Assembly (NCBI RefSeq): GCF_036507355.1
Contig: NZ_AP027881.1
From: Escherichia coli
GTDB taxonomy: Bacteria > Pseudomonadota > Gammaproteobacteria > Enterobacterales > Enterobacteriaceae
DNA length: 6,346 nt
Reading direction: 5' to 3' (one strand)
Made by a program: the position numbers and the translations under genes. A model generated the notes under the pieces. The model saw only the letters and a program-made list of their open reading frames with translations. It searched no databases and was not told where the DNA came from. Positions within the stretch are counted from its first letter, which is position 1. Each line of letters starts with the position of its first letter. Of the stretch, positions 1-6,346 are shown in pieces.

Positions 1-126
1 AGTCGGCGAATATCTTGAACAGGACTACTATCGGCAACTTGACGAACTATCCGTCAACACGCCTTAACTTAAACAAAATACCCTCCGCCAAACCCGGGGC
101 GGTTCACTTCTTCGACGAGAAAAACC

Positions 127-588
127 ATGCAAAACATTCTGATGAATCTGGCGTTTTATCTCCTGGTTGTTGCTGCCGGCGCCAGCTTTTCCCTGCAACA
201 GGCGGCCAACAACCATCTTCGCGCAGAACTGCTTTCACCATGGTGGGCAGGTTTCATCAGTTATGTCGGCGGTTCCCTGGCCATGCTGGTCATGGCGCTG
301 GTTTGTCGCGGCCCTGGCCTGTCATGGGATATGCTTTCGCGTACCAGCCCGTTTTCATGGACAGGCGGTATTTTAGGGGCGATTTACATTGCCACGGCCA
401 TTTTCATGATCCCGAAACTGGGAGCAACAACGGTTCTGGCATTGATGGTGGTCGGGCAAATGCTGCTTTCCCTGATGCTCGATCACTATGGCCTTCTTGG
501 TATCCCGGTTTATCCTGTCACCGGTATCCGCCTGCTGGGCGTTGTCCTGCTTGTTCTTGGGGTAGTGCTGATCAGATGGCAGGCATAA
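127..588 (+). CDS. Small inner-membrane protein, DMT-superfamily (YdcZ/DUF606-like), 153 aa
   Basis: Intact ORF; product is almost entirely hydrophobic with several predicted TM helices and resembles the DUF606 small transporter family from memory. GC-rich codon usage explains the overlapping alternative-frame ORFs. Weak GAG-type SD upstream. Stop codon directly abuts the IS6-family remnant. Confidence 0.6.
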   Translation: MQNILMNLAFYLLVVAAGASFSLQQAANNHLRAELLSPWWAGFISYVGGSLAMLVMALVCRGPGLSWDMLSRTSPFSWTGGILGAIYIATAIFMIPKLGATTVLALMVVGQMLLSLMLDHYGLLGIPVYPVTGIRLLGVVLLVLGVVLIRWQA

Positions 589-589
589 G

Positions 590-817
590 ATCAAGGGATT
601 CGAAGTCATGCGAGCCCTGCGCAAAGGACAGGCTCGCCCCTGGTGCCTGCAGCCCGGCATCAGGGGCGAGGTGCGCCTTGTGGAGAGAGCTTTTGGCATT
701 GGGCCCTCGGCGCTGACGGAGGCCATGGGCATGCTCAACCACCATTTCGCAGCAGCCGCCTGATCGGCGCAGAGCGACAGCCTACCTCTGACTGCCGCCA
801 ATCTTTGCAACAGAGCC
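590..817 (+). mobile_element. Remnant (3' end only) of an IS6-family insertion sequence, distinct from IS26
   Basis: Frame starting at 590 translates to IKGFEVMRALRKGQA...GEVRLVERAF, matching the C-terminus of the IS26 transposase in this window (KGIEVMRALRKGQASAFYYGDPLGEMRLVSRVFEM) at protein but not nucleotide level. Stop at 761-763 is followed 54 bp later by TTTGCAACAGAGCC (804-817), 13/14 identical to the IS26 terminal inverted repeat, with the same stop-to-end spacing as IS26. Confidence 0.55.
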
Positions 818-938
818 CTTGCGCGCATACTCATGCATGCCGTAAAAACAGAGCCTGCGCGTTTCTGGCGGGTTTTCGGGTGGTTTGTTGCCTGTTTTAC
901 CGGTTTCCCGTCAGAAACGCCCTCAGAGCCTCTCAGGC

Positions 939-966
939 GGTGCACGCAAGGGATGTTATGGTAAAT
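939..966 (+). other. XerC/XerD-type recombination core, site 1 (GGTGCACGCAA-GGGATG-TTATGGTAAAT)
   Basis: 28-bp site: 11-bp XerC-like arm, 6-bp central region, 11-bp XerD arm identical to the cer XerD arm as I recall it (TTATGGTAAAT). One of three direct copies in the window. Confidence 0.75.
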
Positions 967-1033
967 ATCGTTTATGTTGATTAACAAATTAAAAGATAAG
1001 ATTATTCCTACTTCTCTATTTTCTGGGGCTTTT

Positions 1034-1267
1034 ATGAAAAAGGTAATTCTCTCATTGGTTTTTCTGTCATCAGTAATTCTTGCTGGCTGCTCAAGCCAAG
1101 CAGGTCCATTTGTGACCAACATTAGCAGTGATGGTAGAGGTGGGCTTGTCGTTGAGAAATGTATGGTTCGCCTTGATAGAATGATTAATACCGTTGAATC
1201 ATCTAGCTGCACTAATTCAAGTATTACTCTGTCCTCACCATCTTCTAGCTCGACACTGACTCGTTAG
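1034..1267 (+). CDS. Small lipoprotein of unknown function, 77 aa, low GC
   Basis: ORF with signal peptide MKKVILSLVFLSSVILAGC (lipobox LAGC); GGGG 6 nt upstream of the ATG at 1034. The track ORF starts at 974, but that start has no SD and falls before the signal peptide. Ser-rich C-terminus. No family recognised. Confidence 0.55.
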   Translation: MKKVILSLVFLSSVILAGCSSQAGPFVTNISSDGRGGLVVEKCMVRLDRMINTVESSSCTNSSITLSSPSSSSTLTR

Positions 1268-1282
1268 ATTTCATGTTGCTAC

Positions 1283-1311
1283 TTGAGATTATTTAATTCA
1301 GCGGGTAGTCT
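1283..1311 (+). promoter_or_regulatory. RNA II (primer) promoter of ColE1-type replicon 1
   Basis: TTGAGA (-35), 17-bp spacer, TAGTCT (-10), positioned as in the pMB1 RNA II promoter (TTGAGA...TAATCT) just upstream of the RNA I terminator complement. Confidence 0.55.
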
Positions 1312-1321
1312 TTCGCTTGAA

Positions 1322-1425
1322 AAAGAAAAAACCGCCCTGCAAGGCGGTTTTTCGAAGGTTCTCTGAGCTACCAACTCTTTGAACCGAGGTAACTGGCTTG
1401 GAGGAGCACAGTCACCAAAACTTGT
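1322..1425 (-). ncRNA. RNA I antisense copy-number control RNA, replicon 1
   Basis: Complement of the RNA II 5' region. 5' end placed by alignment to pMB1 RNA I (ACAGTATTTGG vs ACAAGTTTTGG here); 3' end is the hairpin ACCGCCTTGCAGGGCGGT plus U-run. Ends approximate to about 5 nt. Confidence 0.7.
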
Positions 1426-2432
1426 CCTTTCAGTTTAGCCTTAACCGGCGCATAACTTCAAGACTAACTCCTCTAAATCAATTACCAGTGGCTGCTGCCA
1501 GTGGCGCTTTTGCATGTCTTTCCGGGTTGGACTCAAGTCGATAGTTACCGGAACAGGCGCAGCAGTCGGACTGAACGGGGGGTTCGTGCATACAGTCCAG
1601 CTTGGAGCGAACTGCCTTCCCGGAACCGAGTGTCAGGCGTGGAATGAGATAAACGCGGCCATAACAGCGGAATGACACCGGTAAACCGAAAGGCAGGAAC
1701 AGGAGAGCGCACGAGGGAGCTACCAGGGGGAAACGCCTGGGATCTTTATAGTCCTGTCGGGTTTCGCCGCCACTGATTTGAGCGTCAGATTTTGTGATGC
1801 TTGTCAGGGGGGCGGAGCCTATGGAAAAACGGCAACGCCGCTTCCTTTTCTCTTCCTTTCCCAATTTGATTGCTACTAGCCTACTCCTTTACTTCTGAGC
1901 CGGTAACGCCCGCCGCAGTCTCACGTCCGGAGCGTAGCGACCGAGTGAGCGAGGAGGCGTAATTTCATCGACTCCTGCATTTTTCACTTACGCCCTACAG
2001 CTACATTTTTCACCTGCCAGGGGTCAGTTTGGATATAGAGAATTATTGTACGGTAAGCCTGTTTTTTGAACAGACTTACCTATAGCAATAGGGTGTACTC
2101 CCGCGCTATACGGCATTTTCAGAGGTTTGACCTTAATCGGATAACCTAAATGCGATACTGCAAGAGCGACAACTTAAAAGCGATAGCCACTGACGCAAAA
2201 TCAACCCCTTACGAACCAAGATTGGTTAAATAATGCGCTTAACGTACAAAAATTTCCGATCTCCAAACTGACCCCTTCTTCGCCTCTTATGTTTCTCGAA
2301 TGAATCGATGGGGACAGGAAATGTTTTGTGGCCACCGCCGCTTCGCCGGCACCACAAAACTGTCGGACAAGATGTGTTTTTGGAGTACCGCCGGCACCAA
2401 AAACATTTCATCAGGCGCAGCCTGATACCCTG

Positions 2433-2452
2433 AATTTCGTACGTACGAAATT
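2433..2452. repeat. Perfect 20-bp palindrome AATTTCGTACGTACGAAATT
   Basis: Exactly self-complementary; lies in a gene-free tract that also holds two tandem hairpin units (2323-2360, 2375-2405). Confidence 0.8.
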
Positions 2453-2850
2453 TTGCTTTTGTTCAGATCGAGGGCAGGATTCGCAAAGTGCTGGCGTTTG
2501 TGCTCACATCCTTTAGACGTTGCGATGCAGGATAGGGCAGACGCCGCAAAATGACGTCATTTGCGGTATCTGCCCCGAAAACAGAATGTTTTCTCCTGAG
2601 CCTGCAGCTGGCTCTCAGAACCCCTACCGCCTCGCAAAGCTCGTTGCTCAACGCCTCACGACCGCACAGTAAACTGTGCACCCGTTCACCGTTATCGATG
2701 GGGTTCAGCGAGCCTTTTGAGCAGTTCGCAGGATTTTAGCCGCTAAAATTCCGGCCAGGCATGTTCGTGCATAGCCATGCAGATGCGCAGAAATCATCAG
2801 GCGCGTTTTTCAGGGGTTGGTGCTGGGAAAGGTGCCGGAAACGGCCCGTT

Positions 2851-2878
2851 CGCCTCAAAATGGCTCTGAGGCGTTTTC
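2851..2878 (+). terminator. Hairpin plus T-run just upstream of Xer site 2
   Basis: CGCCTCA-aaatggctc-TGAGGCG followed by TTTTC. The same GCCTCA/TGAGGC stem recurs before site 3 and in degenerate form before site 1, so it may be part of the recombination-site module rather than only a terminator. Confidence 0.35.
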
Positions 2879-2881
2879 AGC

Positions 2882-2909
2882 GGTGCGGGCAAGGGATGTT
2901 ATGGTAAAT
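2882..2909 (+). other. XerC/XerD-type recombination core, site 2 (GGTGCGGGCAA-GGGATG-TTATGGTAAAT)
   Basis: Same architecture and identical central region and XerD arm as site 1; direct orientation. Confidence 0.75.
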
Positions 2910-2944
2910 TGCTCATCACAGTAGCCAGTTAAGCAGAGGTTAGA

Positions 2945-3271
2945 ATGTTTGGGTTTTTTAAGAAAAAAAAGCTCTATGAAGAGATCTGTAAAGATGCAGG
3001 GATGGCTTTATCTGATGGGTTATTGGCCCAAGGCTTAGCGAGAAACAAAATAGAAGCAATGGGGGCTGGTGCTGTTTTTAGTCAGTCTTTGAGGGAGGCT
3101 GTTTCTCAAGGTTACAAGTCTTCTGATGCGATTGCTGAAGCAAGAAAAAACACATCTCATCATCTAGCTGCTAGAGGGTTTGATTTTGAAACGATCGCAA
3201 GTGCGATTGATGTTTTTTGTACTGCTACAGCATTTGAATCAATGTTAGATCTTGCTCGCGATAAAGGCTGA
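2945..3271 (+). CDS. Hypothetical cytoplasmic protein, 108 aa, low GC
   Basis: ORF with good SD (GAGG 6 nt upstream of ATG); no signal peptide; lysine-rich N-terminus (MFGFFKKKK). Bracketed by Xer sites 2 and 3. No family recognised. Confidence 0.6.
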   Translation: MFGFFKKKKLYEEICKDAGMALSDGLLAQGLARNKIEAMGAGAVFSQSLREAVSQGYKSSDAIAEARKNTSHHLAARGFDFETIASAIDVFCTATAFESMLDLARDKG

Positions 3272-3303
3272 ATATCGAGAGGAGTGACGGGTTGTTATCA
3301 TTA

Positions 3304-3330
3304 GCCTCAGAGTAGATTTGAGGCCTTTTG
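3304..3330 (+). terminator. Hairpin plus T-run after the 108-aa ORF, immediately upstream of Xer site 3
   Basis: GCCTCA-gagtagatt-TGAGGC followed by CTTTTG, 33 nt after the ORF stop; same stem as the site 2 hairpin. Confidence 0.4.
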
Positions 3331-3333
3331 GGC

Positions 3334-3361
3334 GGTGTATGCAGGAGATGTTATGGTAAAT
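3334..3361 (+). other. XerC/XerD-type recombination core, site 3 (GGTGTATGCAG-GAGATG-TTATGGTAAAT)
   Basis: XerD arm identical to sites 1 and 2; XerC arm and central region diverged; direct orientation. Confidence 0.7.
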
Positions 3362-3428
3362 ATGTCTTATTGAGAATATTCTTACTAATGCGCGGTTTTT
3401 TTCTAATTTTTAAATGGATGACTTAAAA

Positions 3429-3806
3429 ATGAAGGCAAGATTTTTTGCAGCCTTGCTTATTACTTTTTTTCTTTCTGGATGTGCGACAGAGGCGGGATAT
3501 CAAAGGGTATTAAATTCATGGATGGGATCTACTGATGTGAGCTTGATTCAGTCATGGGGGCCGCCTCAGCAATCTTATGAACTTTCTGGCCATACCTTCC
3601 TAGTTTATTCAAATAGCTCTAGCTCTTATATACCTGGAGTGGCTCCTACCTATCAGACTACGTTTATTGGTAATACAGCGTATACAAACACCTATGGCGG
3701 CTCGCCCGGCTTTAATGTTAGCTACTCATGTACTACGACTTTTGAGGTTGTTGGCGGGAAAATTGTTAACTGGCGTTATCAGGGCAACAATTGCACATCG
3801 CGTTAG
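3429..3806 (+). CDS. Lipoprotein of unknown function, 125 aa, low GC
   Basis: Signal peptide MKARFFAALLITFFLSGC (lipobox LSGC). Start at 3429 preferred over the track start at 3414 because it begins the signal peptide. Mature part is Ser/Thr/Tyr/Gly-rich with two Cys near the C-terminus. No family recognised. Confidence 0.65.
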   Translation: MKARFFAALLITFFLSGCATEAGYQRVLNSWMGSTDVSLIQSWGPPQQSYELSGHTFLVYSNSSSSYIPGVAPTYQTTFIGNTAYTNTYGGSPGFNVSYSCTTTFEVVGGKIVNWRYQGNNCTSR

Positions 3807-3973
3807 TCGTGTGTCCAATCGTAGTATCAGGTGAAGATACAATAGAGAACTTAATACCCTCTTGGTGGGTATATAAAAACCAAGATGAGCGTAGCGACCT
3901 TCTTTAAACTCGTTCCTTGTGTGTCTTACCCTGCAAAAGGTTTGATTGTGTGGGTGTAAATGAAATCGTTGCG

Positions 3974-4003
3974 TTGACAGTTACATGTGACGAGATGTAG
4001 TCT
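3974..4003 (+). promoter_or_regulatory. RNA II (primer) promoter of ColE1-type replicon 2
   Basis: TTGACA (-35), 18-bp spacer, TAGTCT (-10), directly upstream of the RNA I terminator complement. Confidence 0.55.
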
Positions 4004-4011
4004 CTAAAACG

Positions 4012-4112
4012 AAAAAACCGCCCTGCAAGGCGGTTTTTTCGAAGGTTCTCTGAGCTACCAACTCTTTGAACCGAGGTAACTGGCTTGGAGGAGCGCAGTC
4101 ACCAAAACTGTT
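4012..4112 (-). ncRNA. RNA I antisense copy-number control RNA, replicon 2
   Basis: Same reasoning as replicon 1 RNA I; terminator hairpin ACCGCCTTGCAGGGCGGT plus U-run at the 3' end. Ends approximate. Confidence 0.7.
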
Positions 4113-4693
4113 CGTTTAGTTTAGCCTTAACCGGCGCATAACTTCAAGACTATCTCCTCTAAATCAGTTACCAGTGGCTACCGCCAATGGCGATTTGTCG
4201 TGTCTTTCCGGGTTGGACTCAAGACGATAGTTACCGGAACGGGCGTGGTAGTCGGACTGAACGGGGGGTTCGTGCATACAGTCCAGCTTGGAGCGAACTG
4301 CCTACCCGGAACTGAGTGTCAGGCGTGGAATGAGATAAACGCGGCCATAACAGCGGAATGACACCGGTAAACCGAAAGGCAGGAACAGGAGAGCGCACGA
4401 GGGAGCCACCAGGGGGAAACGCCTGGGATCTTTAAGTCCTGTCGGGTTTCGCCACCACTGATTTGAGCGTCAGATTTCGTGATGCTTGTCAGGGGGGCGG
4501 AGCCTATGGAAAAACGCCCGCCGGGGCGTGGCCTTTTCGCCCTTGTCCTTAGCTTTCGTTATGCTTACCGTTACGTTATCTGCTTATCCTCCCTCCGCTC
4601 GCCGCAGACTCATGACCGAACGGAGTGAGCGAATGAGCGAGGAAGCGGAAAACAATCAGAACGTACAGTAAGCACTTTCGCGCCGGGGCCTTC

Positions 4694-4885
4694 ATGAACA
4701 AACAACAAAAGACAGCCGTTAACATGGCTAAATTCATCCAGGATCAGTCCCTGCTTCTTCTGGACAGGCTTAATGAGCTGGATCTGGATCATGAGGCTGA
4801 TTTCTGCGAGAAACTCCATGAGGATGCGGAACGCCTTTACCGAAGCCTGTCAGCGCGCCTGAATGAGCAGCAGGACGGTGCGTAA
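4694..4885 (+). CDS. rop: Rop/Rom (RNA one modulator) homolog, 63 aa
   Basis: Same length as pMB1 Rop, with clear similarity along the whole protein as recalled (MTKQEKTALNMARFIRSQTLTLLEKLNELDADEQADICESLHDHADELYRSCLARF vs MNKQQKTAVNMAKFIQDQSLLLLDRLNELDLDHEADFCEKLHEDAERLYRSLSARL here). Confidence 0.85.
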   Translation: MNKQQKTAVNMAKFIQDQSLLLLDRLNELDLDHEADFCEKLHEDAERLYRSLSARLNEQQDGA

Positions 4886-4918: not shown

Positions 4919-5188
4919 GGCATCGCCTTAATTTTCATTGTCTTAGCGCTTAACATTATTACCCCGGTAATACCCACAATCCCTGTATTTTTTCTTTTTT
5001 ATTTATTTTTCATGAAGTTGCGATGAAAATCGCAGCTGCGTTAGGTGTATGACCATTTTGAGGTTGAAAAATAATCAACCATGGCGGGTGATTTACGCAG
5101 GTTAAGGGGAGATCGTGACAAAAAAAAGCGTTCCTCACTGTATCGTTCATGCCTGCATGAACGGGTTATTCTTCCTGACTACAGAATT

Positions 5189-5340
5189 ACATCGCTCCTT
5201 CAGTTCATACATCACTTTTACAACACTTTTACAACACTCCTTCGGCCTGTACATCACTTTTACAACACTTTTGCATCACTTTTACATCATTTATACATCA
5301 CTTTTACATCATTCCTTCAGCTCATACGTCACTTTCATCC
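5189..5340. repeat. Tract of roughly 11-bp tandem repeats (core ACAxCACTTTT), iteron-like
   Basis: Repeated units ACATCACTTTT / ACAACACTTTT / GCATCACTTTT / ACATCATTT across about 150 bp, bracketed by direct repeats CCTTCAGTTCATACATCACTTT (5197-5218) and CCTTCAGCTCATACGTCACTTT (5314-5335). The ORFs the track predicts here are repeat-translation artefacts. Confidence 0.7.
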
Positions 5341-5526
5341 TCTGTGCCATTTGTACATCACCCCCTTCCTGAACGTGCTGACAGCGGGTTTTCCGGCTGC
5401 GCCGGCAACGCTTCACGGCCACGCAATAAATTGCGTCCCCGTTCACCGTTTTCGGATGGGAAGAACGCCGGAAACAGGACTTCCCCTGGCTGAATGGTGT
5501 GAATTTCCGCGCTATGCACTTGCGCG

Positions 5527-6346
5527 GGCACTGTTGCAAAGTTAGCGATGAGGCAGCCTTTTGTCTTATTCAAAGGCCTTACATTTCAAAAACTCTGCTT
5601 ACCAGGCGCATTTCGCCCAGGGGATCACCATAATAAAATGCTGAGGCCTGGCCTTTGCGTAGTGCACGCATCACCTCAATACCTTTGATGGTGGCGTAAG
5701 CCGTCTTCATGGATTTAAATCCCAGCGTGGCGCCGATTATCCGTTTCAGTTTGCCATGATCGCATTCAATCACGTTGTTCCGGTACTTAATCTGTCGGTG
5801 TTCAACGTCAGACGGGCACCGGCCTTCGCGTTTGAGCAGAGCAAGCGCGCGACCATAGGCGGGCGCTTTATCCGTGTTGATGAATCGCGGGATCTGCCAC
5901 TTCTTCACGTTGTTGAGGATTTTACCCAGAAACCGGTATGCAGCTTTGCTGTTACGACGGGAGGAGAGATAAAAATCGACAGTGCGGCCCCGGCTGTCGA
6001 CGGCCCGGTACAGATACGCCCAGCGGCCATTGACCTTCACGTAGGTTTCATCCATGTGCCACGGGCAAAGATCGGAAGGGTTACGCCAGTACCAGCGCAG
6101 CCGTTTTTCCATTTCAGGCGCATAACGCTGAACCCAGCGGTAAATCGTGGAGTGATCGACATTCACTCCGCGTTCAGCCAGCATCTCCTGCAGCTCACGG
6201 TAACTGATGCCGTATTTGCAGTACCAGCGTACGGCCCACAGAATGATGTCACGCTGAAAATGCCGGCCTTTGAATGGGTTCATGTGCAGCTCCATCAGCA
6301 AAAGGGGATGATAAGTTTATCACCACCGACTATTTGCAACAGTGCC
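5527..6346 (-). mobile_element. IS26 (IS6 family), complete 820-bp copy
   Basis: 14-bp terminal inverted repeats GGCACTGTTGCAAA at 5527-5540 and its reverse complement at 6333-6346; length 820 bp; encodes the canonical Tnp26 sequence. The element ends at the last base of the window. Confidence 0.95.
5579..6283 (-). CDS. tnp26: IS26 transposase Tnp26, 234 aa
   Basis: Translation MNPFKGRHFQRDIILWAVRWYCKYGISYRELQEMLAERG...GEMRLVSRVFEM matches IS26 transposase as recalled. The track ORF carries a 6-codon upstream extension (MLMELH) that is probably not translated. Confidence 0.95.
   Translation of the reverse strand: MNPFKGRHFQRDIILWAVRWYCKYGISYRELQEMLAERGVNVDHSTIYRWVQRYAPEMEKRLRWYWRNPSDLCPWHMDETYVKVNGRWAYLYRAVDSRGRTVDFYLSSRRNSKAAYRFLGKILNNVKKWQIPRFINTDKAPAYGRALALLKREGRCPSDVEHRQIKYRNNVIECDHGKLKRIIGATLGFKSMKTAYATIKGIEVMRALRKGQASAFYYGDPLGEMRLVSRVFEM

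Follow-up and report, generated by a model that had tools for sequence, protein, structure and literature searches.

Clusters of resistance genes in Gram-negative pathogens are organised mainly by IS26. To our knowledge, current models let it move other DNA in only two ways: as DNA lying between two IS26 copies, or as a translocatable unit that goes to a resident IS26. Here, we describe a 6,346-bp stretch of DNA from Escherichia coli (RefSeq contig NZ_AP027881.1), called the window in what follows, which carries a complete IS26 and two ColE1-type replicons. An earlier note on this DNA had seen in the IS26 a probable driver of a mosaic structure. The window is quite probably a circular plasmid in which IS26 forms the autonomous arm of a mobile 1,637-bp unit with hybrid ends, one from IS26 and the other from IS6100, and in which the second replicon was joined by a separate Xer event.

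IS26 (IS6/IS26 family, clade I, X00011) has a published length of 820 bp and 14-bp repeats (PMC6807381), and the element of the window matches both values, with repeats of sequence GGCACTGTTGCAAA and a 234-aa DDE transposase. Generation of an 8-bp target-site duplication and copy-in cointegration are properties of the IS26 family (PMC7885326, PMC6807381). What differs from IS26 in the present case is that the duplication surrounds an entity twice as long, in which an IS6100 end stands in for the left repeat of IS26.

IS26 pseudo-compound transposons and translocatable units (Tn4352, Tn6023) resemble this entity in that IS26 mobilises an adjacent passenger and 8-bp duplications arise via copy-in. 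Both were considered as descriptions of the unit and rejected. A pseudo-compound transposon has two directly oriented complete copies of the same insertion sequence (IS), whereas the unit has a single IS26 and, as its second arm, an inverted 229-bp fragment of another IS, IS6100. A translocatable unit inserts beside a resident IS26 by the targeted conservative reaction and makes no duplication, whereas the empty sites of the present unit contain no IS26 and duplications are present. Closer in plan are IS26::catA1, an artificial IS26 into which a passenger gene was inserted (PMC7885326), and ISDsp3, the one natural member of the IS6 family that a review of IS6 lists with a passenger gene (PMC7986276): each has one transposase gene and a passenger between two IS6-type termini. 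The former is active (PMC7885326), so that added length is tolerated. In these two elements, however, the termini come from the same IS, whereas the unit has its passenger beyond the borders of a complete IS26, with an IS6100 end as surrogate terminus on the far side.

The unit itself has been mentioned once, in one sentence of a 2021 paper on IncP plasmids: "IS26-hp-deltaIS6100 ... flanked by 8-bp (TGAAATTC) DRs" (PMC7823714). The structure named there, carried by pHNEP124, pHNGDF36-1 and pSCC4, is the 1,637-bp unit with 0–3 mismatches. That report concerns one site in one plasmid lineage and gives no interpretation; here, three further targets, empty sites and end-flush deletions are added. 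Beyond that mention, we found in the literature no report of recurrent mobility of the unit and no study of mixed IS26/IS6100 ends. IS26 itself is already known; the unit is best described as a hybrid-ended IS26 derivative with a passenger gene.

IS26, Its Flanks and the Circular Record

The IS26 occupies positions 5527..6346 (minus strand), exactly 820 bp, and is the left arm of the hybrid unit. Both of its 14-bp termini are perfect, GGCACTGTTGCAAA at 5527–5540 and the reverse complement at 6333–6346, and they enclose tnp26 (5579..6283, minus strand), an intact open reading frame (ORF) for a 234-aa transposase (Pfam DDE_Tnp_IS240, E=2.4e-48), identical copies of which are annotated in RefSeq as WP_001067855.1. 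Since tnp26 runs from 6283 to 5579, the terminus at 5527..5540 (plus strand; GGCACTGTTGCAAAGTTAGCG...) is the right inverted repeat (IRR), distal to tnp, and forms the outer left terminus of the unit; the left inverted repeat at 6333..6346 (minus strand) is internal to the unit and abuts base 1 of the window in the circle. An 828-bp IS26 query against plasmid records matched at least 5000 records at ≥99% identity, annotated as IS26, and thousands of database copies are 100% identical. A complete IS26, as the earlier note had it, is thus confirmed; the span given there, 5519–6346, ends correctly but starts too early, taking in the 8-bp flank before the true start at 5527. That flank was correctly read as CTTGCGCG (5519–5526).

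The same note placed the right flank outside the window, so that a duplication could not be assessed. The record, however, behaves as a circular one. Window 4995–6346 runs unbroken into window 1–966 in the circular plasmids NZ_AP027584.1 (our handle L001; 4,171 bp) and NZ_CP055045.1 (L002; 3,962 bp), and the joint between 6346 and 1 recurs in NZ_CP135599.1, NZ_CP136022.1, six larger plasmids and one E. coli chromosome. A metagenome scan for the IS26/base-1 joint gave three contigs, of which only OOBX01001041.1 (L023), a self-overlapping contig with the joint, is informative; an exact-match scan for the joint in one genome per species gave no match. From these relatives and the metagenome contig, the window appears to be a circular plasmid of 6,346 bp, cut open directly after IS26, which lies at the "window edge" because a circular record was linearised. 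Base 6346 being joined to base 1, the right flank of IS26 is window 1–8, AGTCGGCG, which does not match the left flank CTTGCGCG. The 820-bp IS26 alone therefore has no target-site duplication. This is no bar to its identity: a duplication is expected only after a resolved simple insertion, and many IS26 copies have none.

The 8-bp direct repeat that the note had advised looking for past 6346 is absent next to IS26 but present at 818–825. The further IS26 copies that might bound a pseudo-compound transposon do not exist, since the circle contains one IS26 only. A search of the window for IS6-type termini gave three matches, against 0.08 expected by chance, ending at 5527, 6346 and 817. The third is the end of IS6100 at 804–817, with one mismatch to the IS26 repeat. 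It is here, directly outside the IS6100 terminus, that the second CTTGCGCG stands.

Read around the circle, the unit consists of the IS26 right repeat, tnp26, the IS26 left repeat, the tail of a tnpA gene, a DMT_YdcZ gene and the 3′ end of IS6100 with its right repeat. Because tnp26 points leftward and the IS6100 fragment is a rightward 3′ end, the outer termini at 5527 and 817 form an inverted pair, so that the ends of the unit are terminal inverted repeats, GGCACTGTTGCAAA and GGCTCTGTTGCAAA, with an intact tnp26 between them. The right inverted repeat of IS6100, GGCTCTGTTGCAAA (804..817, minus strand), is the outer right terminus and equals the IS26 repeat at 13 of 14 positions; the IS6100 end at 817 reads TTTGCAACAGAGCC. 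The two transposases, Tnp26 and Tnp6100, are 60% identical.

Duplications, Empty Sites and Adjacent Deletions

The left copy of the CTTGCGCG duplication lies at 5519..5526 (plus strand), outside the IS26 end of the unit, and the right copy at 818..825 (plus strand). The octamer occurs in the window only in these two copies and is single in plasmids with the empty site. Removal of the unit together with one copy of CTTGCGCG yields a 340-bp sequence that is 100% identical in at least seven small plasmids and at least 80% covered in 1,068 records, and the empty site was also seen in L003 and L004. As this uninterrupted 340-bp region with a single CTTGCGCG exists, the repeat is a true target-site duplication. 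The CTTGCGCG-flanked unit is present in the window, in NZ_AP027584.1 and in NZ_JBRYZC020000005.1 (L019).

Copies of the unit at other sites differ from it by 0–3 mismatches, and three of these sites have duplications of their own. In the IncP mcr-1/cfr plasmids pHNEP124, pHNGDF36-1 and pHNGDF1-1, the unit lies between kfrC and traM with TGAAATTC on both sides, and the empty site is 100% identical in 48 plasmids. In NZ_CP100993.1, it splits the qacEdelta1 gene of a class 1 integron between two copies of TTATTTTC; here the empty site is the intact qacEdelta1, which gives an exact 100-bp match centred on the target. In NZ_CP135599.1, a 4,589-bp RnlAB plasmid, the duplication is GCCCTATC and the empty site is 100% identical over 400 bp. 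Empty sites were thus found for all four targets, with 100% identity over 308, 400 and 340 bp in addition to the exact qacEdelta1 match. The chance of an exact 8-bp match at fixed positions is about 1.5e-5 per site.

Two relatives of the present plasmid, NZ_CP055045.1 and NZ_CP136022.1 (L021), keep the left CTTGCGCG and lack 209 bp and 181 bp, respectively, from the exact IS6100 terminus onward. Deletions flush with this end are the footprint expected of intramolecular transposition by the unit. Both also take out the plasmid's Xer core site. Four insertions with duplications and two adjacent deletions accordingly share the IS6100 terminus (817 in the window) as their exact boundary.

L019 (7,737 bp) was considered as a cointegrate and rejected, since its second unit copy lacks 605 bp at the record junction. 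In this record, an L001-like plasmid recurs at a period of 4,171 bp, complete in one copy and incomplete in the other. The probable cause is an artefact, a long-read concatemer, and not a dimer or cointegrate that existed in the cell.

How the Unit May Move

Taken together, these junctions show that the 1,637-bp unit acts like a single insertion sequence whose outer ends are the right repeat of IS26 and the right repeat of IS6100. As the same unit stands at four sites, each with its own 8-bp duplication, and is accompanied by end-flush deletions, it would transpose as a hybrid-ended derivative of IS26. A transposase, most likely the Tnp26 encoded in the unit, would bring together the outer IS26 end and its IS6100 counterpart, the two being identical at 13 of 14 positions; use of the IS6100 end by Tnp26 is a prediction from the sequences. 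A copy-in (replicative) reaction would then produce an 8-bp duplication of the target and a cointegrate with two copies of the unit, and homologous recombination between the two 1.6-kb copies would leave one copy in the target. In the present plasmid, the insertion point of the unit is midway through the accessory sequence of a cer-like Xer site, where CTTGCGCG was duplicated. The earlier proposal that the GC-rich segment is explained by IS26 and the IS6-family remnant holds in this form: IS26, window 1–588 and the IS6100 fragment make up a single 1,637-bp unit within an 8-bp duplication.

Several observations weigh against this interpretation. The repeats of IS26 and IS6100 differ at position 4, and their sub-terminal sequences differ. 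For the targeted conservative reaction, cooperation is absent even between close relatives of IS26 whose repeats are identical (PMC7885326), although this reaction differs from copy-in. No unresolved cointegrate with two full units was found. Finally, three copies of the unit have no matching flanks: those in an IncF plasmid (L013), in an E. coli chromosome (L017) and at a contig end of L014. Secondary rearrangements would explain these three copies and are needed if the unit moves as proposed. The chromosomal copy (E. coli 23CRST025, NZ_AP045787.1, 1864670–1866306) is 100% identical to the unit, with the differing flanks ATCAAAAG and AATTCAAG; its position between glaH and genes next to ssrA suggests an associated deletion.

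Which transposase acts on the unit? Tnp6100 could come in trans from an intact IS6100 at another place in the cell and use its own right repeat together with the near-identical repeat of IS26. IS6100 is common in the same resistance regions, with an intact copy about 2 kb from the unit in L018, the right arm of the unit is derived from IS6100 and the repeats match at 13 of 14 positions. Against this, an intact tnp26 is carried in the unit beside one of the reacting ends, and several hosts are tiny plasmids with no evidence of a co-resident IS6100. Both versions need one heterologous end to be accepted, and the sequence data do not separate them; we consider action by Tnp6100 rather unlikely. 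It appears on balance that a natural IS26 derivative of 1.6 kb is spreading in Enterobacteriaceae from Asia and South America, and that an IS26-family transposase pairs its own end with a stray IS6100 end.

Two ColE1 Replicons Joined at Xer Sites

Xer recombination of the cer type joins small ColE1-type plasmids and modules, as known from ColE1 cer, CloDF13 parB and the model for small qnrB19 plasmids. Window 933–2909 corresponds to the full circle of a 1,943-bp plasmid, NZ_CP080064.1 (L015), plus a 34-bp overlap, at 99.85% identity. The body of this integrated ColE1-type plasmid (replicon 1) lies at 967..2881 (plus strand) and includes an RNAI at 1323–1423 (minus strand; RF00106, 92.6 bits). 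Replicon 2, the host plasmid that carries the unit, has its own RNAI at 4009..4110 (minus strand; RF00106, 95.8 bits) and the only Rop gene of the window (rop, 4694–4885, E=2e-29).

The overlap with NZ_CP080064.1 is an Xer core site. Core site A, at the left junction (939..966, plus strand), reads GGTGCACGCAA GGGATG TTATGGTAAAT, and core site B, at the right junction (2882..2909, plus strand), reads GGTGCGGGCAA GGGATG TTATGGTAAAT; they are exactly 1,943 bp apart. At site A, the left half and upstream flank are those of the host lineage, as in NZ_AP027584.1, and the downstream flank is that of the 1,943-bp plasmid. At site B, the left half and upstream flank are those of the 1,943-bp plasmid, and the downstream flank is as in L016 and L005 (as in NZ_CP034051.1). 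The cores have 11-bp arms around a 6-bp centre and are predicted Xer sites, recognised by the consensus arms; the TTATGGTAAAT arm is conserved in three cores. The third, Xer-like core lies at 3334–3361, 452 bp after site B, and reads GGTGTATGCAG GAGATG TTATGGTAAAT.

The accessory region of site A is split by the unit into a distal half (5406..5518, plus strand) and a proximal half (826..938, plus strand), which are contiguous in empty-site plasmids. Positions 5406–5454 are 80% identical to 2649–2697 of the other cer region, and the distance to the XerC arm is 121 + 113 bp at site A, with the unit between, and 233 bp at the intact accessory region of site B. The sites thus share with cer-type Xer sites the core architecture, the reciprocal recombinant sites and about 230 bp of upstream accessory sequence, and differ only in that the accessory region of one partner is split by a 1.6-kb insertion.

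Such reciprocal junctions are what XerC/XerD recombination leaves when one plasmid, here that of 1,943 bp, integrates at the core site of another, here the host plasmid, and the two-replicon state is an event separate from the insertion of the unit. In p16EC-9K, too, the Xer site of the 1,943-bp backbone forms a junction with other DNA, and OOBX01001041.1 has the site A junction of the window. That the unit in the accessory region of site A impairs resolution of the fused plasmid is speculation; as the backbone is Xer-joined also in a plasmid in which the unit was not seen, no effect of the insertion on resolution can be inferred.

The earlier note had instead suggested that cointegrate formation by IS26, together with the IS6-family remnant, could account for the fusion of the two ColE1 replicons with the GC-rich segment. 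Cointegrates are indeed the end product of IS26 (PMC7885326), and the window combines two RNAI-type replicons with an IS26. However, a cointegrate would carry a copy at each junction, whereas the circle has a single IS26 and, in all, three termini of the IS6 type. The unit has simply inserted, with a duplication, into cer-accessory sequence that is otherwise contiguous and whose empty site is 100% identical over 340 bp, and the second replicon is a whole 1,943-bp plasmid between reciprocal Xer cores, neither of its junctions touching IS26. Fusion by IS26 is thus very improbable. The note itself held that its proposal would be weakened if related plasmids showed the same fusion without IS26. 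This was borne out in part: p16EC-9K has the 1,943-bp backbone Xer-joined, though to other DNA, and the incomplete gene table of that record lists no IS26, its sequence itself not having been searched for IS26.

A false assembly would be another source of the two-replicon circle, either by a contig broken at a repeat or by two plasmids wrongly joined via a common Xer core. The window ends at the exact terminus of IS26, a classic breaker of contigs, and 20 identical bases are common to the two Xer cores. Nevertheless, the joint from 6346 to 1 recurs in finished circular plasmids from several countries, and the independent contig OOBX01001041.1 reproduces the order of the unit, the two Xer junctions and the 1,943-bp plasmid at 99.86% identity, which makes an artefact highly unlikely.

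None of the small ORFs at 2945–3271 and 3414–3806, between and after the cores, has a Pfam match, and a lipoprotein-like signal is present in one. They resemble Xer-bounded modules that small plasmids (L016, L005, L026) shuffle among themselves. At 5208–5311, upstream of the cer accessory region, there are about 9.6 tandem copies of the 11-bp sequence TACATCACTTT, with a 42-bp periodicity superimposed from 5178, and this array is conserved in relatives. Homology breakpoints common to several small plasmids (L001, L005 and L016) cluster at window ~4995–5051 and 2020–2275. A relaxase fragment beside a copy of the breakpoint sequence in L005 hints at a second recombination hotspot besides the Xer sites, possibly related to oriT.

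Passenger Gene and Origin of the Right Arm

Between IS26 and the right terminus, the unit begins with the tail of a truncated Tn3-family tnpA (1..67, plus strand), the last 66 bp plus the stop codon, cut by IS26. The passenger gene (127..588, plus strand) encodes a 153-aa DMT-family transporter of the YdcZ type (PF04657 DMT_YdcZ, E=2e-35; annotated WP_196451626.1). A hybrid promoter at the joint of IS26 with base 1, directed toward this gene (TTGCAA, 17 nt, TATCTT), was considered and rejected: it agrees with the consensus at 8 of 12 positions, and a promoter scan made no call. The IS6100 part (589..817, plus strand) is the 3′-terminal 229 bp, positions 652–880, and encodes only the C-terminal 51 aa of the transposase; RefSeq annotates it as "IS6 family transposase, missing N-terminus". 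The IS6-family remnant that the earlier note recognised at 590–817 is thereby identified as the 3′ end of IS6100.

Window 1–817 is 100% identical to a segment in 81 plasmids, only eight of which have IS26 at base 1. In plasmids of the PittNDM01 p3 type (L006), this segment forms the right side of an IS6100 that a Tn3-family fragment splits, and the sequence upstream of window base 1 is present in PittNDM01 p3 and replaced by IS26 in the window. A 554-aa ORF of PittNDM01 p3 (2403–4067), with a DUF4158 domain, runs into the stretch corresponding to window 1–67. When window 592–817 is joined to the 5′ part from PittNDM01 p3, an IS6100 of 880 bp with a Tnp of 254 aa results, in agreement with the published sizes (PMC6807381). 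The parental structure spans 1591–4817 of PittNDM01 p3, where IS6100 is broken after position 654 by the Tn3-family fragment, which is joined to the DMT gene and has a 38-bp-type repeat (GGGGTTCTAGGG...) and the 554-aa tnpA fragment. At the joint of the DMT gene with IS6100 (window 586–592), there is no 5-bp duplication and no second Tn3-type repeat, only a common GAT.

In a stepwise origin in place, an intact or interrupted IS6100 would first have entered at CTTGCGCG, producing the duplication, and IS26 would later have deleted up to its left boundary, so that the unit never moved as a whole. This could draw on the known adjacent deletions of IS26 and on the interrupted parental IS6100 in 81 plasmids. 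It would, however, need the identical base-precise deletion at four unrelated targets that all differ in their 8-bp duplication, and none of these sites showed a full interrupted IS6100; this origin can be set aside.

Implications

The evidence for a naturally mobile IS26 unit with mixed ends is strong, but what it adds is an extension of a familiar system and not a new one. For annotation, an IS26 that lacks a duplication of its own may belong to a longer element, with the partner end on the far side of a "remnant", windows from circular records need to be read across the origin, and in small plasmids with several replicons Xer-site junctions should be looked for before IS26 is given as the cause. 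The unit would also be an easily testable natural substrate for the end requirements of IS26-family transposases. Transposition with one IS26 end and one IS6100 end into targets free of IS26 would add a third route to the two by which IS26 moves other DNA. If this is true, the many orphan IS6-family termini in resistance regions could act as surrogate ends, and one IS26 could carry the genes beside it to sites that have no resident IS26, a second copy not being required.

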